Below, in pieces: positions 1 to 11,007 of a stretch of DNA of 11,007 nt; within the stretch, counting starts at the first letter, position 1, and each line of letters opens with the position of its first letter. The stretch covers positions 1-11,007 of the IMG/VR virus record IMGVR_UViG_3300029577_000220, one strand, 5' to 3'. The translations under genes and the position numbers were made by a program. Source of the stretch: a virus. Its lineage: Duplodnaviria; Heunggongvirae; Uroviricota; Caudoviricetes. Below the pieces are notes generated by a model. It had not been told where the DNA came from. It saw only the letters and a list, made by a program, of their open reading frames with translations, and did no database searches.

Positions 1-1505
1 TGGTCTCTCATCCTTCTCCACTGCTGTACAAAATATAGTCTTAGCGTGGGATAATTTCCGTTTTCCAAGCGGACCCCTTTTTGTCCTCCATTCGCCCTGC
101 AAACAGGGTAGCCAGTTGGCCGATAATCAGAAGGTGAGACGCTCATAAGCTCTTTGCTGATGGTGGCCGACAGTGCGTCTTCGGTCATTTCACCGATTCC
201 GTCTTCCATCTCGTCGAGCGCCTTTAGCGCCTCCTCCAGAGTCATTTCATCCGGCGCAGGAACAAAGCCAGACTCACTGTCTTTGGGCACTTCCGCACCA
301 TCTTTATTTTCTTTGCCTTCGACGTCTTCTTCAGTTTCCCCACGATCAGTATCGGAGTCCTCACCGCCATCACCATCGATGCCAGAGCCATAACCATCAG
401 AATCATCGGTATCTTCGCGAATACCATCGCCAGGTCTTGGAGCGCCAGTGCCATTGCTGCCATCATCATCGGTGTCAGAGTCACTTGATTTCATGCCGAT
501 AGCATCGGATTCTGGGGTGTCTCCTGACTCTTCGTGGCCTGCTTCTGTATATTTACTTTCTGTATCACTAATATCTTTAACGTGTGTAGGTAAGTCCTTA
601 TCTAATGAATCAGGCAAATCGGAATCCCCAGAATCTTCCTCTTCTGATGCATCATCTTCTCGTTCTTCCTTGTCATCGCCTTCGCCTTTGGCAGGCTTAG
701 ATGCAGAGTCACCATGAGACGGCTCGTCACCTGATTCTGGCGTTTCCTCGGACTCGTCTTTGCTCTCCGACGGCTTTCTGGCAGATGATTTAAGTTCTGG
801 TAATTTGCCCTCTGGCTTGTCTTTCATATCCTGCATGATTTGGGCTATAGCAGCAGCGACCTTCACGCAATCCTCAGTGTTCGACATATTGCGAACGGCC
901 ACGTCTATACCATGCTCCTTTAGTAAGGCTACCGGCCTCTCGATAAGGCGCCAGTGTTCTTCCATAAAATCGATGAAGGGGCTTTGTCCATCCCAGGCGC
1001 GGACGACCGGGCAAAGGAAGAATTTCAAAAACAATTCACGCTGGTCTCCGTGACAGGCTAAAACCGCTTCTGGTACTTTATTCCTGAAGTATTTGTCGAT
1101 AACCAGACTCTGTGTTGCAAGTAAATTACGCCGGGTTCCGTTAAAGACCTGCCCCATTCTGCGTTCAATAAAAACGTCTTCCAGCGCATTCCAAAGCCCC
1201 GTAGACGGAGCCTTTCCTCTTTCGCGCATCTGCATTGCGACTTTCGGTTCAGTAAAGAGAATATGGGCCACCTCATGGTCGAGAAAACCACGCACTGCGT
1301 TCATGAGGGTTGGCGACGCGTCGTCCGGTATAGATGGGATGTTTACCAGCACTGGTTCGCCGCGCCGGTTATAGCGGACATATGCTTCATTGCCTCGTTC
1401 TGCAACAGGTATTTGTTTACCTGAAAGCATCGCTACAACTCGTTTTACACAGTCGCGAAAATCCTGCACCTCTTTCAGTACAGCTTTGGTGGTTTTTTTG
1501 GACAT
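1..1505 (-). CDS. Large protein with N-terminal globular region followed by a ~200-aa D/E/S/G-rich acidic low-complexity linker; architecture resembles CobT-like (cobaltochelatase CobT / vWA-associated) proteins. Start ATG at 1503-1505; 3' end lies beyond the window start, so ~501 codons are in the window.
   Basis: Minus-strand frame set by ATG 1503-1505 is open to position 3 (translated by hand at both ends: MSKKTTKAVLKEVQDFRDCVKRVVAMLSGKQIPVAERGNEAY ... SPSDYRPTGYPVCRANGGQKGVRLENGNYPTLRLYFVQQWRRMRD). AAGGGA Shine-Dalgarno-like sequence ~8 nt upstream of the ATG. The Ser-rich plus-strand ORFs in the track (154..717) are antisense shadows of the acidic repeat region. Family assignment is from architecture only. 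Confidence 0.6.
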   Translation of the reverse strand, partial: MSKKTTKAVLKEVQDFRDCVKRVVAMLSGKQIPVAERGNEAYVRYNRRGEPVLVNIPSIPDDASPTLMNAVRGFLDHEVAHILFTEPKVAMQMRERGKAPSTGLWNALEDVFIERRMGQVFNGTRRNLLATQSLVIDKYFRNKVPEAVLACHGDQRELFLKFFLCPVVRAWDGQSPFIDFMEEHWRLIERPVALLKEHGIDVAVRNMSNTEDCVKVAAAIAQIMQDMKDKPEGKLPELKSSARKPSESKDESEETPESGDEPSHGDSASKPAKGEGDDKEEREDDASEEEDSGDSDLPDSLDKDLPTHVKDISDTESKYTEAGHEESGDTPESDAIGMKSSDSDTDDDGSNGTGAPRPGDGIREDTDDSDGYGSGIDGDGGEDSDTDRGETEEDVEGKENKDGAEVPKDSESGFVPAPDEMTLEEALKALDEMEDGIGEMTEDALSATISKELMSVSPSDYRPTGYPVCRANGGQKGVRLENGNYPTLRLYFVQQWRRMRD

Positions 1506-1558
1506 TAGAATTCCCTTGTTGTTAAAACAATTTGTTTTCTGATGTGCGTAATTTATCA

Positions 1559-1591
1559 CTGTACGAACAGGCATCTAATCTGTTCGTACAG
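1559..1591. promoter_or_regulatory. Perfect 12-bp inverted repeat CTGTACGAACAG-N9-CTGTTCGTACAG in the 5' leader/promoter region of the 1..1505 gene; candidate operator or leader stem-loop.
   Basis: Arms 1559-1570 and 1580-1591 are exact reverse complements; located 54 bp upstream of the start codon at 1505. Confidence 0.4.
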
Positions 1592-1605
1592 GCGCTAGAG
1601 AGGAT

Positions 1606-1618
1606 GGGAGGGGGGGGG
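1606..1618. repeat. Homopolymeric G tract (GGGAG followed by 8 G) between the stop of the 1619..1831 ORF and the start of the 1..1505 gene.
   Basis: Direct reading of 1601-1620: aggatgggag ggggggggtt. Confidence 0.6.
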
Positions 1619-1831
1619 TTAAATTGTGCGGACGGCTACTGAACCGCAGCCGGTATTGATGAGAGTGAAGCACTTGCCCTTTAGCTCAAAGATGTATGCG
1701 GTTGCGTCTTTCATGTCAAGTAACAAAGACTTTGTTGGCAGTTCAGTGAGTATGGCTGCTGCCCCATCATCGTCAATTGAAATCGTATGTCCGACCTCAA
1801 GGGCGATCAAATTAGAAGTTATTTTTTTCAT
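1619..1831 (-). CDS. Hypothetical small protein (70 aa), divergent from the HTH regulator gene.
   Basis: ATG at 1829-1831 (minus), weak GGATGA SD-like sequence upstream; shares a 247-bp AT-rich divergent intergenic region with the 2088..2477 gene. No recognisable domain. Confidence 0.3.
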   Translation of the reverse strand: MKKITSNLIALEVGHTISIDDDGAAAILTELPTKSLLLDMKDATAYIFELKGKCFTLINTGCGSVAVRTI

Positions 1832-2087
1832 TTCATATCATCCAACTGAACACGTAAATACCTTGCAATACTACTACCTATTGTATCAATACGGAATACT
1901 TATGTATCAAATACAACTTAGTTTTAAGTTCTTAAATGAGTTATTTTTTAGATAGTTGTCTATTAATGAAGCCTTTTGCGGTCAGTAAACCTATGTAAAA
2001 AAATAGATAAGTCTTTACAACACTAACCTTTGATGTAATATCAGTAAGCACTTACCAAATAAAATCAAAACACGCAGGTTGATAATT

Positions 2088-2477
2088 ATGGCTACCAACG
2101 AAACAAAAGAAGCTAAAGTAAGTCGCTACGCTGCTTACATTGACGCTTTAATCGCGATTTCTCCGAAAAGCCAGGCGACCATCGCGAAAGAAGCAGGCTA
2201 TAAAAACCCTAACAATCTTTCACTTATCAAGAGCGGCAAAATCCCGCTTCCGATCGACAAGGTCAGAGCGTTGGCTAAAGCATTGGATGCCGATTCGGTC
2301 CGATTGATGCTAATGGTGCTGGAAGAGCGTCATCCAGAGCTGTTAGCGTTTTTTCGCGACGAAGGCACAGCCCCTCTGACTAAAGATGAAAAACTAGTTC
2401 TGGAAGCCTTCCGTCGACGTTTCGGTGACCAACGTGGTGCGTCGGAGCGGGTTGTTGAGGCAATCAAGTCGCTATGA
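2088..2477 (+). CDS. XRE/Cro-CI-type helix-turn-helix transcriptional regulator (129 aa from ATG 2088; the track ORF begins at an upstream in-frame TTG at 2079).
   Basis: HTH_3-like segment SQATIAKEAGYKNPNNLSLIKSGKIPLPIDKVRALAKALDAD; AGGT ~9 nt upstream of ATG 2088; AT-rich upstream region; convergent with the integrase and overlapping its 3' end by 6 bp. Confidence 0.65.
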   Translation: MATNETKEAKVSRYAAYIDALIAISPKSQATIAKEAGYKNPNNLSLIKSGKIPLPIDKVRALAKALDADSVRLMLMVLEERHPELLAFFRDEGTAPLTKDEKLVLEAFRRRFGDQRGASERVVEAIKSL

Positions 2478-3575
2478 GAAATTTACACGGATTAGCTCAG
2501 TAGCGAGTCGATCTCCCTTGAACTTATGATCTATCTCCTCTAAATCCTGTTTCTCTACGATTGATGCGATGTACGCCGAAAAACTGTTTAAGGCGTCTCG
2601 CATCTCGTCTATATAATCGTGTCGATCGTATACTCGATCTATCCCCTCAAGACTGTGGTTCATAATTTTGCGGGATACCTCCTGACTTATGCCTAACGCG
2701 GGGAAGTAACTACGCGCAGTACGACGCAAATCTCGGGGAGTAAATGGCTCAAGCTCCATCAACTCTGGACGTTCTAAAATCCTTCTCAACGCCTGTGATA
2801 TGGCCACCTTAGACATTGGCACATCCTCACCCTGTTTCTTGTTTGAAGGAACAAGCCACTGGCTGCCTTTTCCGTATTTGATCAGCTCCTCAACACATTT
2901 GCGCATTAGCGGGCTTAATGGTAACGAGTGCTGGCGAGCCGATTTATTCCTCGTTCCTTGATTCCATAAATTATATTCGAGGTTGAATTCTGATCTTTTA
3001 GCTCGGAGCACTTCATCTGGTCGTCTGGCCGCTACAAGGCATAATCTGGCCGCCCACTTTGTACCCTCACATACGTTGAAGTAGTCCCATACATTCCAAA
3101 AGACCCAGACCTCTGCGTCGGTCAGTTTGCGCTCGCGCGGCGTGGGCTTCGCGCCACCGGCTACTCTGTTAAGCGACATATCGTTCAATGGGGATGTATC
3201 AATTAAGCCCTGAAATGCACACCAACTGAGAAACTGCTTCATCAGCGAGAACACACGTCTGCCCTGGACGATCTTGCCCTCAAGTATTAATGGGTTCACC
3301 AGCTGGTTGACTAAAACCCTACTAATATCACTTACTTTTACTTCACAGATATGCGGCATTACATGTATCAAAATACAATGAACAGCTATTTCAGGTCGAC
3401 GTCTCGTTATCAGCAAAGATAAGCGAGTGAATAACATGAATGCGGAAGAAAACGACATATCACCGTCGAAATTGGTGGTCGACACTGCTGACAAACCGGA
3501 AGCGCGTTCGAGATACTCGATGGCTTCTCTAGAGGTGTTTTCTGCTGCGCGTGCTTTATCAAAAGTGTTTTTCAT
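2472..3575 (-). CDS. int: Tyrosine recombinase/integrase, P4-like family, lacking the N-terminal arm-binding (DUF4102-type) domain; possibly a truncated remnant.
   Basis: C-terminal catalytic region FTPRDLRRTARSYFPALGISQEVSRKIMNHSLEGIDRVYDRHDYID matches the integrase box II / R..Y architecture; core-binding region ISRVLVNQLVNPLILEGKIVQGRRVFSLMKQFLSWCAFQGLID matches the P4-integrase core-binding pattern. The region upstream of 3575 (3576-3874) is AT-rich and non-coding, so no arm-binding domain is encoded. Confidence 0.85.
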   Translation of the reverse strand: MKNTFDKARAAENTSREAIEYLERASGLSAVSTTNFDGDMSFSSAFMLFTRLSLLITRRRPEIAVHCILIHVMPHICEVKVSDISRVLVNQLVNPLILEGKIVQGRRVFSLMKQFLSWCAFQGLIDTSPLNDMSLNRVAGGAKPTPRERKLTDAEVWVFWNVWDYFNVCEGTKWAARLCLVAARRPDEVLRAKRSEFNLEYNLWNQGTRNKSARQHSLPLSPLMRKCVEELIKYGKGSQWLVPSNKKQGEDVPMSKVAISQALRRILERPELMELEPFTPRDLRRTARSYFPALGISQEVSRKIMNHSLEGIDRVYDRHDYIDEMRDALNSFSAYIASIVEKQDLEEIDHKFKGDRLATELIRVNFS

Positions 3576-3672
3576 AGTCCACTCACTGAGTGAAGCCTGT
3601 TTTTACTGTATTTATAAACAGTATGTTAGGCCTAAGTTTTGTATGATCAACAGTAAAATAGACTGTTTTTGA

Positions 3673-3707
3673 AAATGATTCCATACCTTACAAGTATGGA
3701 ATCATTT
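3673..3707. promoter_or_regulatory. Perfect 14-bp inverted repeat AAATGATTCCATAC-N7-GTATGGAATCATTT in the integrase upstream region; candidate operator/recombinase-binding site.
   Basis: Arms 3673-3686 and 3694-3707 are exact reverse complements; the arm core GTATGGAATCAT recurs at 5326-5337 and 6346-6357. Confidence 0.45.
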
Positions 3708-3874
3708 ATATAGCTTACGTAAATTCTGAATAAATTATGTAGACAAACCATCTTAAACGCTAAATAGTAAAAAGCGCCTAATAACGCCAACTTTGGAATG
3801 CCATCTGAGCCAGATTGATGAGAATGATTTGTTAGAAGAAAAAGAATGATGAAGAAGATGACGATCGCTAAAGT

Positions 3875-4291
3875 TCAGCTAGAATGGAAACCTTCTGCGA
3901 CTTCAGCGAAGTAGCTGAGCAACCTAGTATCTCTTGCTGGCATACGATCGTGAGCTGGAGTGACTAGCCCCATCAGCAAAAAACGCCCGCTATCCCACAT
4001 GTGCTCGGTATAAACGAGATAGTGGTTTGAGGTTCGGTTGTAGTTCTCTTGCCTTGCGTTCCAGGTAAGCTGGAAATGCAAATTGACGTGAATATGCTGG
4101 ACATTAGCATCAACGGCGAACGGCGGGAAGTCAAATGGCGCATCTCGTCCAAGAAGATTAGATGGTGCGCCAGTTGATTTGTAAGTAATGAACTCGGATT
4201 TGAGCTGACTTTCTAGGTCAGGGTAAACGACAAAAGTGGGCTGAAAAAAATCATCCCACGTAACTTGACTGTATTCAGCCGTTAATGCCAT
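3875..4291 (-). CDS. YafO-family toxin (ribosome-dependent mRNA interferase type), 138 aa.
   Basis: Block-wise resemblance to E. coli YafO recalled from memory: FITYKSTGAPSNLLGRDAPFDF vs FISYKRDGVLPDIFGRDALYDD; VQHIHV vs VAHIHL; RTSNHYLVYTE vs RTNDEAHLVYCQ; FLLMGLVTPAHDRMPARD vs WLLIAILKPEPHKLARD; AEGF vs AEAF. Start ATG 4289-4291 overlaps the upstream gene's last codons by 10 nt. Confidence 0.7.
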   Translation of the reverse strand: MALTAEYSQVTWDDFFQPTFVVYPDLESQLKSEFITYKSTGAPSNLLGRDAPFDFPPFAVDANVQHIHVNLHFQLTWNARQENYNRTSNHYLVYTEHMWDSGRFLLMGLVTPAHDRMPARDTRLLSYFAEVAEGFHSS

Positions 4292-4830
4292 TTAGCCGCA
4301 GCCTTGTTGCCAGTCTCTAATAGATGGTTCATGGCTAAAAGGTTGACACCAGAGTCACGCACTACAGAAGTGCGTGTAATCTGATCAATCAGATTGAGAT
4401 AGTTTTTGGTCGCAATACTGACCATTTTAATAGCCTTAAAAAACGCAAACTCAACAGTGTTTTTTTCGTAAGACATGATGACGTCTTTTTCAGGTAACAT
4501 CAAAACAAAAGATTCTGCGATACCGGCTACATGAATAGTTTGATTCTTAATTTCTTCCGCTACTTTGATAGCAGCAAAGAAGTCAGTGTCAGCATAATGA
4601 GCAAGTTCAGCGCGGCTTGAACGCAGTTCTTTAGCCAATTCATTGAGAGCAGCTGTAAGATCACTGATGTCGGTTTTGTTGACTCTAGCGCCCATCTCAT
4701 AAACCCGTTCTACAATCGTAGGCTGACACGCAACCGCTTTGGGTTGCGGCTGGATACTGGCAAGAACCAGTGCCACTGCTGCCTGCAAATGCTGGATTTT
4801 AAATTTCACGATAGACTCCATAATCGTCAT
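4282..4830 (-). CDS. Hypothetical 182-aa protein translationally coupled to the YafO-like toxin; putative cognate antitoxin/partner, not YafN/RelB-like.
   Basis: ORF with ATG at 4828-4830; stop TAA 4282-4284 overlaps the start of the YafO-like gene; no recognisable RelB/DinJ/YafN-like sequence and roughly twice the size of YafN. Confidence 0.6.
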   Translation of the reverse strand: MTIMESIVKFKIQHLQAAVALVLASIQPQPKAVACQPTIVERVYEMGARVNKTDISDLTAALNELAKELRSSRAELAHYADTDFFAAIKVAEEIKNQTIHVAGIAESFVLMLPEKDVIMSYEKNTVEFAFFKAIKMVSIATKNYLNLIDQITRTSVVRDSGVNLLAMNHLLETGNKAAAKWH

Positions 4831-4908
4831 TTCTCGACGAAGCGTAGCATTCTACTACTGAACTTAACTATAAGCTAAAAAAAGTTGGTTGCATATGCGA
4901 CTTGATAG

Positions 4909-4929
4909 CAAAAAGGGGCCGAAGCCCCT
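4909..4929 (-). terminator. Rho-independent terminator downstream of tRNA-Asn (minus-strand sense GGGGC-UUCG-GCCCC followed by UUUUU).
   Basis: Plus strand 4910-4932 aaaaaggggccgaagcccctttg: 5-bp GC stem, UUCG tetraloop on the minus strand, T-run on the minus strand (A-run 4910-4914 on plus). Confidence 0.55.
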
Positions 4930-5005
4930 TTGGATTTTGCGCTGAAAAAAGTGTTGCTACGATGCTTAGAAGCAATGGTTAAAAAACGTCTGCCGTGTCT
5001 ATCAC

Positions 5006-5080
5006 AGCGCTGAACGGTCTGGCGACATTTGCGGAGTCTTTCGTTCGGACGGTGGTGGCGAATCCAAACCGTTCAGCGCT
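5006..5080. other. Long hairpin: 13-bp perfect inverted repeat (AGCGCTGAACGGT / ACCGTTCAGCGCT) enclosing 49 nt, immediately 3' of the tRNA; possible structured RNA or degenerate tRNA-like element.
   Basis: Arms 5006-5018 and 5068-5080 are exact reverse complements; the enclosed sequence does not fold as a cloverleaf by hand. Confidence 0.35.
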
Positions 5081-5084
5081 ATGT

Positions 5085-5159
5085 TGGCGATGGTGGGTGG
5101 ACTCGAACCACCGACCAGTTGATTAACAGTCAACCGCTCTACCACTGAGCTACACCATC
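5085..5159 (-). tRNA. tRNA-Asn (anticodon GUU), 75 nt with encoded CCA.
   Basis: Minus-strand sequence GATGGTGTAGCTCAGTGGTAGAGCGGTTGACTGTTAATCAACTGGTCGGTGGTTCGAGTCCACCCACCATCGCCA folds by hand: acceptor GATGGTG/CACCATC, D-stem GCTC/GAGC, anticodon stem GTTGA/TCAAC with loop CTGTTAA, T-stem GGTGG/CCACC with loop TTCGAGT, discriminator G, CCA. Confidence 0.85.
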
Positions 5160-5408
5160 ATTTTCGCGGCGGTACTAGCTTATGGACAACCAGGCAGCCA
5201 GAAACTTTCCCGTAACTTGCACTTTACGTTAGTGCCAGACGAGGTATGTGGCTCGCTCATATGAGCGAAGATCTCGAATCTTTCTCGGTGGTTGATTGCC
5301 GTTAGATTCTTCGATCTTATTGGATGTATGGAATCATACATGTTGTGAAGCCAGGGGCAATAAAGGCAACAATGTTTTCACTAGAGGGTTAATTAATCCT
5401 GCTTTCAC

Positions 5409-5518
5409 AACGTTGAGATCACTGAACCGATTAATGTTCAACCCAACATATTGATCAGTCGCTACAGCTATGTGGAATCGCCTGTATGATTTTAAGAAAA
5501 ATCAGTGATCTCAACGTT
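5409..5518. repeat. 17-bp perfect inverted repeat (AACGTTGAGATCACTGA ... TCAGTGATCTCAACGTT) separated by 76 bp in the non-coding region between the tRNA and the small-gene cluster; candidate structured ncRNA, origin-like element or MITE-like remnant.
   Basis: Arms 5409-5425 and 5502-5518 are exact reverse complements; no convincing ORF in 5160-5900. Confidence 0.4.
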
Positions 5519-5883
5519 ATGTGCTGACTAACCAAGTCAGCCGGGTTACGTCGCCGCTTTTAACCCAAGTATAAACGACATAAGTAATGGAAATGACGTA
5601 ACAGAATGGACGGTCAGCTGAAACCGGGATGGGTGAATGGAATGATGAAACCAACCGCCCATTCTGTTACTTCATTGAATGGGGCATGGATGGTGCAATA
5701 TGCCCTATTCTGCGTTCTGCAATCACACTCGCTCAGTGTGTCCCATTTTGGTGACGAGGCTGGAAACTGACCTCGCTGGTGTTTGGCTTCTTAGGCTACT
5801 GCCAGGTATGCATCTTCGTTTGCAGTTATATTTAACGTTCAAACAGTCGCATCTCAACGAAAACAAAGTGATCTTATACATAT

Positions 5884-5909
5884 TAGATAAGTAAGTAAAT
5901 ACTTATCTA
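5884..5909. promoter_or_regulatory. Palindromic site TAGATAAGTA-AGTAAA-TACTTATCTA overlapping the stop of the 5903..6208 gene; shares the 11-mer ATAAGTAAGTA with sites at 10811-10821 and 8582-8592 (reverse complement).
   Basis: 10-bp arms 5884-5893 and 5900-5909 are reverse complements; the 11-mer recurs at two other loci, both 5' of minus-strand genes. Confidence 0.4.
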
Positions 5910-6208
5910 TCTGTGATGCGTTTAGTTGCTATCTTTTTGATCAGGCTCCCCTTTTGTTCCGAAGTTCTCATGATGATGGCGGTAAAACGCTTCGCTTGAA
6001 TAGTGATAGTTTCGTTTTCCTTGAGTTCGCCGTAATGCGTCTCTAACAGGGACCCCAGACGCCACAGACCGTCGTCTATGCGTTTATGGCTGGCGAATCT
6101 GATCAGCAGTAGCTTTACGATTAACTGACCAATGTAAAAGGCAAATCCGAAGCCGGCCGCCACAAGGTAGGTTGCCAGCCACCAGTCGAAGGAAGTCAAA
6201 TTGCTCAT
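5903..6208 (-). CDS. Hypothetical small membrane protein (101 aa).
   Basis: ORF with ATG 6206-6208; hydrophobic segment WWLATYLVAAGFGFAFYIGQLIVKLLLI; start overlaps the stop of the upstream 50-aa ORF (ATGA). Confidence 0.5.
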   Translation of the reverse strand: MSNLTSFDWWLATYLVAAGFGFAFYIGQLIVKLLLIRFASHKRIDDGLWRLGSLLETHYGELKENETITIQAKRFTAIIMRTSEQKGSLIKKIATKRITDR

Positions 6209-6357
6209 TTTCGCACTCCCGTCTCGTGAACAACCCGATACACACGCTTACCGACACGAAGTGTTTTGGTTTGCAGTTCCTGCTGGACCAGGGCGCGGCA
6301 GATTGCGAGGCCGAGGCCCACGCCACCAGTAAAAGATAAAATGATGTATGGAATCAT
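6205..6357 (-). CDS. Hypothetical 50-aa protein with a hydrophobic N-terminus (MIPYIILSFTGGVGLGLAICRALVQQ...); not in the supplied ORF track (below the size cutoff).
   Basis: Hand translation: ATG at 6355-6357 overlaps the TGA of the 6357..6569 gene (TGATG), and its own TGA (6205-6207) overlaps the ATG of the 5903..6208 gene (ATGA). Confidence 0.3.
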   Translation of the reverse strand: MIPYIILSFTGGVGLGLAICRALVQQELQTKTLRVGKRVYRVVHETGVRK

Positions 6358-6569
6358 CAGTGCGCCCCCGCCTCAGTCAATTGCTGCAACAACAAATAAC
6401 CTTTTTCAGTCAGTTGATAGTTCTCAATACATCCCTTTGGAGAAACGTTGGCGACAAGATTCATGCGCTCCAGTTTGGCTCTGGTCTTCGGCTTCCAGTT
6501 GGCGTAGAACTCCTTCCACTTGCTGATTTCACGCAGGGTTTCCTTCTCTCGTTTACTTAACATGCTCAT
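6357..6569 (-). CDS. Hypothetical small soluble protein (70 aa), Lys/Glu-rich, possibly DNA-binding.
   Basis: ORF with ATG 6567-6569; embedded in the overlapping gene chain downstream of the ligase. Confidence 0.45.
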   Translation of the reverse strand: MSMLSKREKETLREISKWKEFYANWKPKTRAKLERMNLVANVSPKGCIENYQLTEKGYLLLQQLTEAGAH

Positions 6570-6729
6570 CCTTAATCTCCTTCAGTGTGTCCGTGATATC
6601 TACTATGCGATAAATACGACCTCGCCTTTGCATGACACCGGCTTTTACGTAATCGTGGATACAGCTGGACATAACCAGACTTCCGATAACAATGCCGACG
6701 ACTAAAAATACAAACATCCAGCCGAGCAT
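6553..6729 (-). CDS. Hypothetical 58-aa protein with an N-terminal transmembrane helix (MLGWMFVFLVVGIVIGSLVM...); not in the supplied ORF track.
   Basis: Hand translation: ATG at 6727-6729 shares one base with the ligase stop codon (TGATG); TAA at 6553-6555 lies inside the start of the next gene. Confidence 0.3.
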   Translation of the reverse strand: MLGWMFVFLVVGIVIGSLVMSSCIHDYVKAGVMQRRGRIYRIVDITDTLKEIKDEHVK

Positions 6730-8051
6730 CATTCTTTATCTCCAATACGATCTTCGGTATCTCGAAGACATTTAGGCCACTTCAGACGTGGATGACGCAA
6801 GCTACCATCTGGCGTTTTCTCATGGCAGTGAACCTCAACGATGCGTCCACGATACTTCTCCTGATTGTTCCAGATTTCATCCAGGTATTTATGCTTGATA
6901 CCGCTGGCACGAACGATGACGCCGTTCTCCAGACGAATCACTATCTTGCCTAGCGTATGCGCAAATCCAGAATCCGGATCGCCAGGCTCGAAGTCGATGA
7001 TTTCACCGTCTTCTGAATCCTCGTCTTTCAGCTTCCACCAGCTGCGGGTACGTTTGAACTCGTAAACTGAATCCGGATCTTTGCCCATCTCTCCCTCTTC
7101 ATTCTCGTCCAGTCGCTTCATGAAACGTTCGATGAAATCTTCGTGGCTATGGATGATGTAGAACGGATGAAGGTGGATATCTTGCGCATAATCTTCCACG
7201 CAAGTGTTGCGGAACAACGCCACCAGCATAGCCAGGCGCTCTTTCAGCTTCATACCGGTCTTCAGGTACTCTTTGCTTTTTGCTTGAGCACGCCACTCCG
7301 GTAAGAAGAAATCGAAAATGTGGTAAACGGCACCAATGGCTTTCACGTTCTTCTTACGAAGCGCCGACACTGACTGGTTGAATGTACCTGCAGTGCCCTC
7401 TCCATCGAAGAAGATGTGATTGAAGCCGGAGAGTCTGCCCCGCTCCAGCATGGCTGGTTTAAGGTGATCGAGTGACGTAATCGGATTGCCGGTGCGCGTC
7501 AGGAAATTGACCTCACCCTCGTCCACGATGACTTCGCAGATAACCCGGAGACCATCGAGTTTGAGACTGCCGATCATTGGCCACTTGGCCTTTGGATTTG
7601 GTTTAAATGGGTATTTGTCGCCTTTCTCCTTGTACGGAGACGCCAGCTGTACCTCAAACTTCGGAATTGGGTTTTCGAACACCTTGTTGCACAGGCTGAT
7701 GCCGACACCGGCTTTCGGATCTTTCAGCAGGAAGCGACGAAACACGTCCTGCCCGTCAGCGCACATCGAGGCAACGAGTGATTCGACAGCAGCAATAGCG
7801 ATGTTCCCGGTCAGTTCGCGCGCTGCCAGCTTCTCCAGCAGATCTACTACCTTCTGGTCGCTGGGTACGGAAGTATCGAGTGGCTCGGCCACTTTGTACT
7901 TCTTCACACCGAATCGAATGAATGGATTGAGCATTAGCGAGACCATGCTCTGTTCAAATTCATCCAGATTGGCCAGCGCCTCTTTCTTGGCGTTGGTTCC
8001 CATCGTTTTAATAGCATCCAGCTTGTGCTTTAGGGCGATCAGTTTTTCCAT
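6729..8051 (-). CDS. ATP-dependent DNA ligase, T7-like (phage-type), 440 aa, with an ~80-aa N-terminal extension.
   Basis: Nucleotidyltransferase motif I KLDGLR; motif III FFDGEG; motifs IV-V EGEMGKDPDSVYEFKRTRSWWKLK (compare T7 ligase EGLIIKDP...SGWWKMK from memory); C-terminal motif VI TPDGSLRHPRL...RD. GGAGG Shine-Dalgarno 9 nt upstream of the ATG at 8051. Confidence 0.9.
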   Translation of the reverse strand: MEKLIALKHKLDAIKTMGTNAKKEALANLDEFEQSMVSLMLNPFIRFGVKKYKVAEPLDTSVPSDQKVVDLLEKLAARELTGNIAIAAVESLVASMCADGQDVFRRFLLKDPKAGVGISLCNKVFENPIPKFEVQLASPYKEKGDKYPFKPNPKAKWPMIGSLKLDGLRVICEVIVDEGEVNFLTRTGNPITSLDHLKPAMLERGRLSGFNHIFFDGEGTAGTFNQSVSALRKKNVKAIGAVYHIFDFFLPEWRAQAKSKEYLKTGMKLKERLAMLVALFRNTCVEDYAQDIHLHPFYIIHSHEDFIERFMKRLDENEEGEMGKDPDSVYEFKRTRSWWKLKDEDSEDGEIIDFEPGDPDSGFAHTLGKIVIRLENGVIVRASGIKHKYLDEIWNNQEKYRGRIVEVHCHEKTPDGSLRHPRLKWPKCLRDTEDRIGDKE

Positions 8052-8085
8052 TAGTGTTTAACCTCCATCGGTCGCTCGGGAGTTT

Positions 8086-8574
8086 TCATGTGTTTTCTTT
8101 GGTTGCTTCTTCAATGAGTGCCGCGTACACGTCAGTGACCGGCGCCAGTGAATCGGTGGGCTTGGTTTCGGATTTAGCAGGTTCTGTTTTCTTCGTGCGA
8201 TGAATAAGACTGTCAATTGTCGCGGTGTTTCGCTTCCGGGGGAGCGTTCTGGCATGGTCGTTTTGCTCTTCCACTTCTTTGATAAGTGAAGACATATCGA
8301 TGAAGTAGAGCTGTTCGTCTTTGCGGATCTCTTCGACCATCATTTTCAGTGCCTGACATTTACCAGCAGCAATAGCCGCAGCGCAGGACTGGAACGATGT
8401 AGCCGGGAGACGTTTTTCTTTATAGGCGAGGATCGTGTGTTGGCAGACTGTATAGCTGCAATGAGCCTCATGGCCGTTGAGCTTCACTTCCGGGCAGCGC
8501 AGCGAATAACCGTTGTTTCCGGAGATAGACGGGATTTTCGACAAATCTGTTCTTGTGGACATGCTTCTAACCAT
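8086..8574 (-). CDS. Hypothetical Cys/His-rich protein (162 aa), putative zinc-binding, immediately upstream of and co-oriented with the DNA ligase.
   Basis: ORF with ATG 8572-8574; segment CPEVKLNGHEAHCSYTVCQHT plus CAAAIAAGKC; 34-bp gap to the ligase start. Confidence 0.55.
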   Translation of the reverse strand: MVRSMSTRTDLSKIPSISGNNGYSLRCPEVKLNGHEAHCSYTVCQHTILAYKEKRLPATSFQSCAAAIAAGKCQALKMMVEEIRKDEQLYFIDMSSLIKEVEEQNDHARTLPRKRNTATIDSLIHRTKKTEPAKSETKPTDSLAPVTDVYAALIEEATKENT

Positions 8575-8599
8575 AATCTTGTACTTACTTATTAATCGC

Positions 8600-8627
8600 A
8601 GTTTAAAGAAGCCCCACGAGGGGGCTA
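8600..8627 (-). terminator. Candidate rho-independent terminator after the IS-interrupted gene (minus-strand AGCCCC-CUCGU-GGGGCU followed by a U-rich tail).
   Basis: Plus strand 8610-8626 agccccacgagggggct; the A-rich stretch on plus (8601-8609) gives UCUUUAAA on the minus strand. Confidence 0.4.
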
Positions 8628-8643
8628 AATGTTTTATCGAGGC

Positions 8644-9099
8644 TTACCAGGTCGCCCAGCCAGTCATTTTGTCCTGAGCAGCTTCGAACCGGTATGGGTC
8701 CAGTAAATCGTTGGTACGATGAACGGCGTAGGATTTGGCTTCTTGTTTAATCATGGGTAATTCGTTGGCCAGACGAGCCACTTGCCCTGCAAAACTGGCG
8801 AGTACTCCGTCACATGCCTGACCCACGTCGACAATGATGCGCACCAGGTCTAAGTCGCTGCGGCACATATCGCAGATAATGCCGTATTCCACCTCACGAA
8901 TGCGCTCAACGGCTTTTTTGATATCGCCACTGACCACCAATTCCAGCAAACCAGGTGGAGTTGTCAGATCTGTTACGCGCTCGGTAACTTCAGACTGTTC
9001 GACAATACTCAGGAACGCCGCGATGGACGGGTCATCCGCCACACCAGCTCTGACTTTGAGCGTGCGAAGAGTTGCGTCGACAATATCCTCAAACCGTTC
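8644..9099 (-). pseudogene. 3' portion (151 codons) of a ~270-codon gene interrupted by IS629; product unknown.
   Basis: The track ORF 8644..9042 (GTG start) extends in frame, with no stop, up to the IS boundary at 9099 (ERFEDIVDATLRTLKVRAGV ADDPSIAAF...). The frame is continuous with the fragment at 10410..10769 once the IS and one TTC copy are removed. Confidence 0.7.
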
Positions 9100-9153
9100 T
9101 GAACCGCCCCGGAAATCCTGGAGACTAAACTCCCTGAGAAAGAGGTAAACAGG

Positions 9154-9480
9154 ATGACTAAAAATACTCGTTTTTCCCCCGAAGTCCGTCAGCGGGCGAT
9201 TCGTATGGTTCTGGAAAGTCAGGATGAATATGACTCACAGTGGGCGGCAATTTGTTCCATTGCCCCAAAGATTGGCTGTACGCCGGAGACTCTGCGTGTC
9301 TGGGTTCGCCAGCATGAGCGGGATACCGGGGGCGGTGATGGTGGGCTCACCAGCGCTGAACGTCAGCGTCTGAAAGAGCTGGAACGTGAAAATCGTGAAC
9401 TGCGCCGCAGTAACGATATCCTTCGCCAGGCTTCCGCTTATTTTGCGAAGGCGGAGTTCGACCGCCTCTGGAAAAAATGA
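9154..9480 (+). CDS. IS629 transposase OrfA (HTH and leucine-zipper part), 108 aa.
   Basis: [23 protein letters not shown]... is typical of IS629/IS1203-group OrfA; ends ...LWKK* at the A6 run 9472-9477, the expected -1 frameshift window. Confidence 0.9.
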
Positions 9481-10367
9481 TGCCACTGCTGGATAAGCTG
9501 CGTGAGCAGTACGGGGTCGGACCGGTATGCAGCGAACTGCATATTGCCCCGTCAACGTATTACCATTGTCAGCAACAGCGACATCATCCGGATAAACGCA
9601 GTGCCCGTGCGCAGCACGACGACTGGCTGAAGAGAGAGATACAGCGCGTATACGATGAAAATCATCAGGTGTACGGTGTGCGTAAAGTCTGGCGTCAGTT
9701 GTTACGGGAAGGAATCAGGGTGGCCAGATGTACAGTGGCACGTCTCATGGCGGTTATGGGACTTGCCGGTGTTCTCCGGGGTAAAAAGGTCCGTACGACC
9801 ATCAGCCGGAAAGCCGTTGCCGCAGGCGACCGCGTAAACCGTCAGTTCGTGGCAGAACGACCTGACCAGCTGTGGGTGGCTGATTTTACTTACGTCAGCA
9901 CATGGCAGGGCTTCGTCTATGTGGCGTTTATCATTGATGTGTTTGCCGGATACATCGTGGGGTGGCGGGTCTCATCGTCTATGGAAACGACATTCGTGCT
10001 GGATGCGCTGGAGCAGGCGTTGTGGGCCCGTCGTCCGTCTGGCACCATCCATCACAGCGATAAAGGCTCTCAGTATGTGTCACTGGCCTATACGGAGCGA
10101 CTAAAAGAAGCCGGATTACTGGCATCAACAGGGAGTACAGGCGACTCGTATGACAACGCGATGGCTGAGAGCATCAATGGTCTTTACAAAGCGGAGGTAA
10201 TACACCGTAAGAGCTGGAAAAACCGTGCAGAAGTGGAACTGGCCACACTAACGTGGGTGGACTGGTATAACAATCGACGATTGCTGGGAAGGCTGGGCCA
10301 TACTCCTCCGGCAGAAGCAGAAAAAGCTTATTATGCTTCCATCGGAAACGATGATCTGGCAGCCTGA
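9477..10367 (+). CDS. IS629 transposase OrfB (DDE/rve catalytic domain), 296 aa; expressed as an OrfAB fusion by -1 frameshifting.
   Basis: rve-type motifs [58 protein letters not shown]; overlaps orfA by 4 nt in the -1 frame. Confidence 0.9.
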
Positions 10368-10409
10368 GTTCACAGATAAAACACTCTCCAGGAAACCCGG
10401 GGCGGTTCA

Positions 10410-10769
10410 TTCACCTTCATCGCACACAGTCTGATTGGTGTAGACAGTCTGATTAGTGTAGACAATGCGACCGTCGTACCATGCACCGATACTCACTTCG
10501 ACCGTTGCGTCTTTCATCTCGCGAGAGAACGCCACAAGTGCCGCGCGTTTCTGCTTAACACCTGACAACTCCGGGGACTCTCCAAAACGAACCCAGACCT
10601 GCATGTATTTCGAGCCTTCCGAAAGAGGTACGGTGCTCACGGACGTGGCGATATGCTCCAGTGCAGTTTGGATCGCCTCGTCGATAATCTTCTGGCGCTC
10701 TTCTGTATCAATTTCTACGCCGGATTTGTCGATGATGTCGCAGACTAACTTCTGAAATTCTTCTTTCAT
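10410..10769 (-). pseudogene. 5' portion (120 codons) of the IS629-interrupted gene; its promoter and RBS are intact.
   Basis: ATG at 10767-10769 with AGGAG 7 nt upstream; the ORF runs into the IS629 right end, where it meets a stop supplied by the IS terminal TGA (10407-10409). Confidence 0.7.
10428..10463. repeat. 18-bp tandem duplication (AGTCTGATTGGTGTAGAC / AGTCTGATTAGTGTAGAC) inside the interrupted gene, encoding VYTNQT twice.
   Basis: Units 10428-10445 and 10446-10463 differ at one position; in frame. Confidence 0.6.
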
Positions 10770-10809
10770 AGCAACTCCTGACTAACAGATGAAAATATTC
10801 TTTCAGAAA

Positions 10810-10831
10810 AATAAGTAAGTATCTACTTATT
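10810..10831. promoter_or_regulatory. Palindromic site AATAAGTA-AGTATC-TACTTATT in the promoter region of the interrupted gene; same motif family as 5884-5909.
   Basis: 8-bp arms are reverse complements; contains the 11-mer ATAAGTAAGTA; ~40 bp upstream of the start at 10769. Confidence 0.4.
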
Positions 10832-10861: not shown

Positions 10862-11007
10862 AAGCCAGGCGTAAAAACTACTCGGATGCACATCCAGCAC
10901 CCGACAAAGCAGTCGGACAGGCCAGCAATAGGTGTTGCATTGACAGATTGAATCTACAACGGCTTTTTTTAATATGTCCCGTTCGTCGGTAACCCGCTTC
11001 AGCTCTT
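10862..11007 (-). mobile_element. Fragment of a second, different IS3-family element (OrfA C-terminus to OrfB N-terminus junction region); continues beyond the right window edge; inner boundary uncertain (between ~10833 and ~10865).
   Basis: Minus-strand translation ELKRVTDERDILKKAVVDSICQCNTYCWPVRLLCRVLDVHPSSFYAW shows the OrfA-type ...ILKKA and the OrfB-type LCRVL.V..S.(Y/F).W motif (compare IS3 MCRVLRVARSGWYTW from memory); A7 run at 10964-10970 lies at the expected frameshift window. Not IS629 (sequence differs from the in-window copy). Confidence 0.45.

Follow-up and report, generated by a model that had tools for sequence, protein, structure and literature searches.

The window analysed here, 11,007 nucleotides from a Caudoviricetes record, is collinear with the replication/early block of phage SSU5, the gene order that characterizes phage-plasmids of the SSU5/pHCM2/pMT1 type. 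In window order, the block consists of a CobT-like gene, an integrase, a YafO toxin, a tRNA-Asn, small ORFs, an ATP-dependent DNA ligase (matching PF01068 and phrog_114), an ORF of 158/162 aa, and a gene split by an insertion sequence. The syntenic stretch of SSU5 comprises the ligase, a 158-aa ORF, SSU5_042 as a single CDS, a primase and a helicase; the collinearity takes in the CobT-like gene, the tRNA-Asn, the ligase and the homologues of SSU5_043 and SSU5_042. Over positions 117-9099, the window and pEC21Z137-115K share 99.8% identity. Among complete relatives pLAO18 is the closest, a non-mobilizable IncFIB plasmid of 112 kb that carries repA and a ParB-like gene along with terminase, capsid, tape measure and tail genes. 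This combination of phage and plasmid genes on one replicon, of about 100-115 kb in elements of this type, was read in pLAO18; the window and the IS-bearing contigs cover 11-43 kb. Judging from these comparisons, the element that hosts the insertion is probably an SSU5/pHCM2/pMT1-type phage-plasmid of E. coli. The tRNA gene and the parts of the insertion are as follows.

5085-5159: tRNA-Asn
9097-9099: left copy of the target-site duplication, TTC; relatives have a single TTC here
9100-10409, plus strand: complete IS629 (IS1203 isoform) of the IS3 family, 1310 bp, with inverted repeats and 100% identity to named copies
9100-9124, plus strand: left terminal inverted repeat (IRL), 22 of 25 bases being the reverse complement of the right end
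9154-9480, plus strand: orfA in the ORF list, 108 aa, with HTH_Tnp_1 (PF01527, E = 2.4e-12)
9435-9551, plus strand: ALIL pseudoknot, stimulator of programmed -1 frameshifting, at the orfA/orfB overlap (Rfam RF01497, 121.5 bits, E = 7.7e-32)
9477-10367, plus strand: orfB, 296 aa, in the -1 frame, with a DDE integrase-core transposase domain (PF00665 rve, E = 9.3e-28), HTH_21 (PF13276) and rve_3 (PF13683)
10385-10409, plus strand: right terminal inverted repeat (IRR), whose terminal TCA reads TGA on the minus strand and ends the 5' gene fragment
10410-10412: right copy of the target-site duplication, TTC, corresponding to codon GAA (E120) of the split gene

The initial annotation described a complete 1310-bp IS3-family element at 9100-10409, and this description is borne out by the ends, the ORFs, the pseudoknot and the existence of 100%-identical copies. 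The element begins with TGAACCGCCCCGG... and finishes with ...CCGGGGCGGTTCA. Its ends are TG...CA and its inverted repeats are imperfect, with the first 13 bases identical and 22/25 matching, as is typical of the IS3 family. The two ORFs overlap, with the second shifted to the -1 frame, and a structure that stimulates frameshifting scores well above the Rfam gathering score of 50 for RF01497; this is the arrangement known from IS629/IS1203. The direct TTC repeat that had been reported was found on both sides, and its 3 bp fall within the 3-4 bp of IS629. Since IS1203 counts as an IS629 isoform and target duplications of 3-4 bp are reported for IS629 (PMC3271280), "IS629" is an acceptable name for the element; we infer that it belongs to the IS1203-like sub-type I of that study.

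Many copies in O157:H7 and other E. coli strains match the element over all of its 1310 bp at 100% identity; PGAP labels them "IS3-like element IS1203 family transposase". From its intact ORFs, intact ends and identity to multicopy elements, this copy would seem to be of the active type. IS3-family elements transpose by a copy-out-paste-in mechanism via a circular intermediate, and IS629 insertions that break prophage and plasmid genes are routine in E. coli. In size, ORFs, pseudoknot, ends and duplication, the element agrees with the IS629/IS1203 elements (IS3 family, IS51 group) of EHEC O157:H7, O111 and O26 and of Shigella. It does not itself differ from them; only its site of insertion, within a gene of an SSU5-type phage-plasmid, is absent from the complete-genome and plasmid collections searched. 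Its transposase lies on the plus strand, opposite to the strand of the split gene.

The interrupted gene and its empty site

Removal in silico of positions 9100-10412, that is, the IS and one TTC, yields an 813-nt minus-strand ORF (10769 to 8644) with 270 codons and no internal stop. The restored junction reads ...NQTVCDEGE|RFEDIVDATLRTLKV..., exactly as the initial annotation had claimed when it stated that the two frames join perfectly, and the sequence of the restored, IS-free site is CCGTTCACC. A 3-bp repeat on its own matches by chance at 1/64; the decisive evidence is the empty site itself. This site (...CAAACCGTTCACCTTCATC..., with one TTC) occurs inside one annotated 813-bp CDS in NZ_OP242248.1 and NZ_CP101235.1. 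The first of these is pLAO18, the nearest relative, which differs from the restored gene at 3 of 813 nt and has an identical junction sequence; pEC21Z137-115K differs at 6 nt and also has one TTC at the insertion point. The proposal that the target gene was intact beforehand is thus confirmed by IS-free relatives that carry the site within a single CDS.

The restored gene matches 249 plasmid records, in 227 of which at least 80% of it is covered without interruption, and it is found in 47 complete E. coli genomes, every time on plasmids. The annotation in these matches is one hypothetical protein throughout. An uninterrupted 795-bp form is present in phage SSU5 (SSU5_042; 86.7% nucleotide identity to the restored gene), in S. 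Typhi pHCM2-type plasmids and in Y. pestis pMT1, as well as on Enterobacter, Citrobacter and Klebsiella plasmids. All full-length homologues are single ORFs of 257-271 aa whose alignment spans the junction, with E120 invariant, and the match to PHROG 4248 extends end to end over residues 1-270. Comparison of the E. coli allele with that of SSU5 gives a dN/dS of 0.145, which shows that the restored gene is real and has been under purifying selection in the long term. The locus has the makeup of an IS-disrupted pseudogene, with an uninterrupted orthologue available and a disruption that consists exactly of the IS and its duplication. The two "hypothetical proteins" of 120 and 132 aa listed by annotation pipelines are better merged as one pseudogene.

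Members of the SSU5_042 family (SSU5, pHCM2, pMT1, E. coli IncFIB phage-plasmids; PHROG 4248) share the position beside the 158-aa ORF and the ATP-dependent DNA ligase. The allele in the window differs from SSU5_042 in being interrupted by IS629 and in having an 18-bp tandem duplication, whereas SSU5 has neither. This duplication (YTNQTV x2), at 10426-10464, is separated from the IS end by 16 nt. IS-free 270-aa alleles share it, 264-aa alleles and SSU5 lack it, and it is therefore unrelated to the IS.

Searches with the restored protein returned no match in Pfam or PADLOC, nothing significant in a PDB profile search and no credible match in Foldseek against BFVD; NCBIfam gave sub-threshold noise only (DksA-like, 19 bits against a cut-off of 105). 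An exhaustive HMM search of 1.84 billion proteins recovered just 31 representatives, all unannotated, and Pfam gave no hit in the variant architectures among them. The sole family assignment is PHROG 4248, which has no functional label. A 2026 preprint on phage-plasmid heteroresistance was considered and concerns a different family.

Remnants of the gene and their expression

Two fragments of the gene and its leader lie around the IS.

8644-9096, minus strand: 3' fragment of the split gene, codons 121-270 and stop, with the derived change A211V at 8825
10407-10769, minus strand: 5' fragment of the split gene, residues 1-120 followed by the IS-supplied TGA, with the derived changes P69S and T94I
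10770-10831, minus strand: 5' leader of the gene, its conservation reaching down to SSU5, with AGGAG 5 nt ahead of the ATG

The truncated ORF of 120 aa foreseen by the initial annotation runs from 10769 to 10407 and contains only native residues. Its stop is indeed supplied by the IS terminus, the TGA being the complement of 10407-10409, and the AGGAG of the leader agrees with the ribosome-binding site described. The 238 nt upstream of the gene are essentially as in IS-free relatives. A sigma-70 consensus scan upstream of the ATG found no promoter, and neither the frameshift lineage described below nor SSU5 conserves the TATAAT at 10834-10829. The statement that the 5' fragment "keeps its promoter" would hold only in the sense that the upstream region is unchanged. 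Motif statistics also pointed to a palindrome of the form 8-N6-8 in the leader, AATAAGTA-GATACT-TACTTATT, at 10810-10831. Just within the IS end, on the strand of the gene, a consensus match to a terminator-like hairpin is seen at 10400-10388, and this hairpin might terminate the truncated transcript.

In the 3' fragment, gene callers place a 132-aa ORF that starts with GTG and runs from 9042 to 8644. By eye, this GTG, the sole start that the 3' fragment has of its own, is preceded by a weak Shine-Dalgarno-like sequence. The next gene starts at 8574 and is preceded by a hairpin at 8610-8626 and by a copy of the upstream motif. Because of these two features, polarity on the ligase block may be limited.

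The structure of the full-length protein was modelled with AF2 on P0001, which is 96% identical to the restored protein and of the same length (pLDDT 84.6, pTM 0.72; residues 1-100 in blocks of 83-91). The predicted N-terminal part (residues 1-116) has two helices and a four-stranded sheet, and the C-terminal part (122-269) is helical. The IS falls in the connection between the strand at 111-116 and the helix at 122-140. When the 120-aa fragment is modelled alone, its secondary structure is kept; pLDDT falls to 72.2 and pTM to 0.49, which makes the stability of such a product doubtful.

Carriers of the insertion and other null alleles

An exact-sequence look-up placed the 120-aa product in 33 index blocks, and the IS adjoins it in all 23 of the 23 contigs read. 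Their sources are isolates (GCA_037638555.1, GCA_005388945.1) and several gut metagenomes. Both junctions, 1310 bp apart, are present in six loci from six different samples; the contigs L010 and L011 end within the IS. Five of the six loci differ from the window at 0-6 sites over 10.6 kb, and one, L008, equals it over 10,601 nt. L009 differs at 41 sites, 37 of which lie inside the IS, a pattern suggesting either that the assembly is chimeric or that IS copies have undergone gene conversion. The upstream neighbours vary among carriers, being a sucrose-utilisation cluster, a RecQ-like helicase block or queuosine/integrase genes. L006, L008 and L012 have the A211V change (base 8825), and L005, L007 and L009 lack it; because only some IS-bearing loci have it, A211V postdates the insertion.

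The insertion is a shared allele, inherited and spread, and not a private event. This bears on the description of the insertion as recent. In sequence terms the description is apt, as the IS matches many other copies at 100% identity, both TTC copies are intact and no decay is seen in the fragments. However, the insertion is neither fresh nor private, since the same junctions occur in six independent samples and three upstream contexts and one substitution has followed it. The junction was spanned by no record in the complete-plasmid and complete-E. coli collections, the carriers seen being draft or metagenome contigs only. A scan of IMG/VR gave no further carrier, and one of JGI/ENA metagenomes gave a single contig, which was already among the known carriers. 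Another candidate (H85) extended for 9 nt beyond the IS end, but it proved to be a different IS1203, lying in pilN and unrelated to this insertion.

Compared with the closest intact allele, the branch that leads to the window has three non-synonymous changes (P69S, T94I, A211V) and no synonymous one. By our calculation, this pattern has a P of about 0.035 under omega = 0.145 and of about 0.46 under neutrality. Being unlikely in the first case and unremarkable in the second, it offers weak evidence of relaxed constraint on both fragments. The restored 270-aa sequence was missing from a collection of 15 billion proteins both with V211 and with A211, so that no intact ancestor or precise revertant has been sampled.

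The gene is broken in other ways as well. A +1 frameshift, in which a run of six A becomes eight (ATATCAAAAAAG to ATATAAAAAAAAG), splits it into 177 + 82 aa and was found in 393 index blocks. A nonsense codon, E188 to TAG, is carried by pYUYZPE244-1 (NZ_CP139126.1). NZ_CP195943.1 carries a -1 deletion, that of plasmid p1 of strain C1, where 1 nt is missing near codon 46 and a sequencing error is possible. Two further protein fragments, P0049 and P0051, begin with foreign residues, which hints at additional insertion alleles. With four null alleles (IS629, +1 frameshift, nonsense, -1 deletion), the sequences indicate that the gene is dispensable for plasmid maintenance or carriage in E. coli, and its loss is probably neutral or mildly favourable.

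Insertional inactivation and its alternatives

We are highly confident that the locus represents plain insertional inactivation, by IS629, of the conserved 270-codon SSU5_042 homologue of an E. coli SSU5-type phage-plasmid. By the mechanism known for the family, an active-type IS629 copy would have transposed into codon 120/121 of the gene, duplicating TTC and splitting a gene of the replication/early-gene block. This rules out production of the full-length protein. What might still be translated from the unchanged leader, if anything is expressed at all, is an N-terminal fragment of no more than 120 residues that ends at the TGA of the IS. The C-terminal 150 codons have lost their own translation start and lie behind 1.3 kb of an oppositely oriented IS. 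The broken allele has since been inherited and has spread across differing neighbouring cargo, gaining an amino-acid change later. The element and the type of event are already known, and the inactivation of a gene in this manner is ordinary. IS629 inactivation in EHEC, for instance lacZ::IS in O121:H19, is likewise the result of simple insertion. Excision of IS629 promoted by IEE has been described (PMC9943667, PMC9397093). Here, loss of the IS and one TTC would restore the ORF exactly; no excised revertant was found in the collection of 15 billion proteins.

A different question is whether loss of the gene has been positively selected in SSU5-like phage-plasmids resident in E. coli, so that the IS629 allele would be one of several convergent adaptive knock-outs accompanying domestication to a plasmid lifestyle. 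The plasmid state might pay a cost for the product, or lytic development alone might require it. Four independent null alleles, two of them widespread (33 and 393 index blocks), and the persistence of the IS allele in different cargo contexts speak for such selection. However, the counts of null alleles cover this gene alone, the same numbers would result from clonal spread of either host or element, and the -1 deletion could be a sequencing error. In addition, the gene is intact in 227/249 complete plasmid records and its dN/dS is 0.145 over the long term. We therefore regard positive selection as unlikely.

Another alternative accepts the insertion and proposes that the 120-aa fragment is produced and has retained or acquired a function, whether as a stand-alone domain or as a dominant-negative product, the IS having entered a linker between two domains. 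The unchanged leader with its AGGAG, a stop placed directly after E120 with zero foreign residues, and the break in the AF2 model at the insertion point are all compatible with it. Against it are the poorer model of the lone fragment compared with the same region in the full-length model, the lack of a promoter detected in the sigma-70 scan, and the two derived non-synonymous changes. One of these, P69S, replaces a proline that 20 of the 24 aligned homologues retain; the changes point to relaxed constraint. A functional fragment thus seems improbable to us.

It is very improbable that the placement of the IS is an artefact, the assembler having collapsed a repeat or joined it wrongly. Assemblies do often break at IS629, a multicopy element, and two carrier contigs end in the IS. 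Nevertheless, both junctions and the perfect TTC duplication recur in six assemblies from six samples and different projects, and mis-joining would not generate a target-site duplication in agreement with the one TTC found at the empty site. Finally, the idea that the two fragments are natively separate genes with an IS merely between them can practically be dismissed: gene callers list the 120-aa and 132-aa ORFs and nothing more, but homologues always form one gene, of 264-270 codons, across the junction, with E120 invariant, and PHROG 4248 spans the whole of it.

Plain insertional inactivation by IS629 thus being the preferred reading, what the locus adds is an allele that tags a lineage in circulation, together with evidence of repeated knock-outs of the gene in E. 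coli. The junction (…GATGAAGGTGAA|TGAACCGCCCC…) provides a clean marker of one SSU5-type phage-plasmid lineage in human-gut and isolate datasets. The natural knock-outs also narrow down what the gene probably does: it would serve the phage part of the life cycle or have an accessory role of some kind. More speculatively, and with rather little confidence on our part, recurrent inactivation of this SSU5_042-family gene in E. coli might occur because its loss benefits the element or the host, in which case the IS629 and A8 alleles would be convergent domestication steps. If true, a part played in lytic development or a cost of carrying the gene might, for example, be the reason, and we would be looking at a phage-plasmid turning plasmid. 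The A8 run, or IEE-mediated excision of the IS, might then make the inactivation reversible.

Allelic variation in the split gene

Close to the IS629 insertion, the split gene carries a short repeat:

10426-10464: tandem duplication of 18 bp, in 2.2 copies that match at 95%, 16 nt from the IS629 end

This duplication encodes YTNQTV twice, and it varies between intact alleles, which come in 270-aa and 264-aa forms. In the AF2 model of the full-length protein, the only low-confidence loop (residues 105-109) contains the duplication site.

Inactivation of this gene is not confined to the IS629 insertion, and independent null alleles were found at L013-L016 (the frameshift lineage, 6001-6796), L021 and L022. 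In the frameshift lineage, an A6 to A8 change produces a +1 frameshift that breaks the gene into 177 and 82 aa (393 index blocks). NZ_CP139126.1 has a TAG stop codon in place of E188, and NZ_CP195943.1 has a -1 deletion near codon 46. Slippage at the A8 run of the frameshift allele could in principle occur.

The carrier contig L009 shares the insertion site exactly, but its IS (1659-2968) and the copy in the window disagree at 37 positions (about 2.8%), which makes it look like another IS629 sub-type. This divergence would stem either from a chimeric metagenome assembly or from gene conversion between IS copies.

The C-terminal helical part

Two proteins, P0069 and P0079 (313 and 307 aa), also have the helical C-terminal part of the split-gene protein (profile positions ~155-264), but there it follows an unrelated N-terminal region of about 200 aa. 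Its occurrence on unrelated N-terminal regions suggests that the C-terminal helical part is a separable module. A Pfam search of both proteins gave no match.

The upstream flank and other genes of the window

Upstream of the split gene lies part of another mobile element:

~10873-11007 and past the window end, minus strand: remnant of a second IS3-family element

Its reading frame gives ELKRVTDERDILKKAV..., with a slippery A7G run, and then ...LCRVLDVHPSSFYAWL. In L008 and L009, two of the contigs with the same IS629 insertion junctions, gene calling makes the ORF of the remnant a 128-aa HTH_Tnp_1 protein, and its end lies 53 nt upstream of the ATG of the split gene. The remnant is also present in the nearest IS629-free relative, pLAO18, and is absent from the frameshift lineage and from Salmonella phage SSU5, a distribution which marks this flank as a variable cargo-insertion hotspot.

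Other genes of the window include:

2472-3575: tyrosine integrase, adjoining the YafO-family toxin gene and 182-aa ORF
3875-4830, minus strand: YafO-family toxin gene (138 aa) and 182-aa ORF
5085-5159, minus strand: tRNA-Asn (GTT)

The 182-aa ORF lies upstream of the toxin gene, which overlaps its end. The tRNA-Asn of the window corresponds in relative position to that of phage SSU5. The 182-aa product is presumed to be the antitoxin partner of the YafO-family toxin, with an unusual size.

A palindromic motif shared with SSU5

Copies of a palindrome, (A/G)ATAAGTA-N6-TACTTAT(T/C), were located in the window:

5887-5906: perfect second copy, after a 101-aa ORF
8581-8593: half-site, before the next gene beyond the split gene
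10810-10831: palindrome, about 40 nt upstream of the ATG of the split gene

A 13-mer of the palindrome matches four times in the window, against 0.03 expected. The palindrome upstream of the split gene is conserved among relatives as distant as SSU5. No description of it was found in the literature searched. In pLAO18 (112 kb), 18 matches, a few of them overlapping, were counted at a threshold of two mismatches or fewer. Of those compared with the annotation, most are intergenic and adjoin minus-strand genes of both early and structural classes. The palindrome is a candidate for an operator or promoter element common to SSU5-type phage-plasmids.
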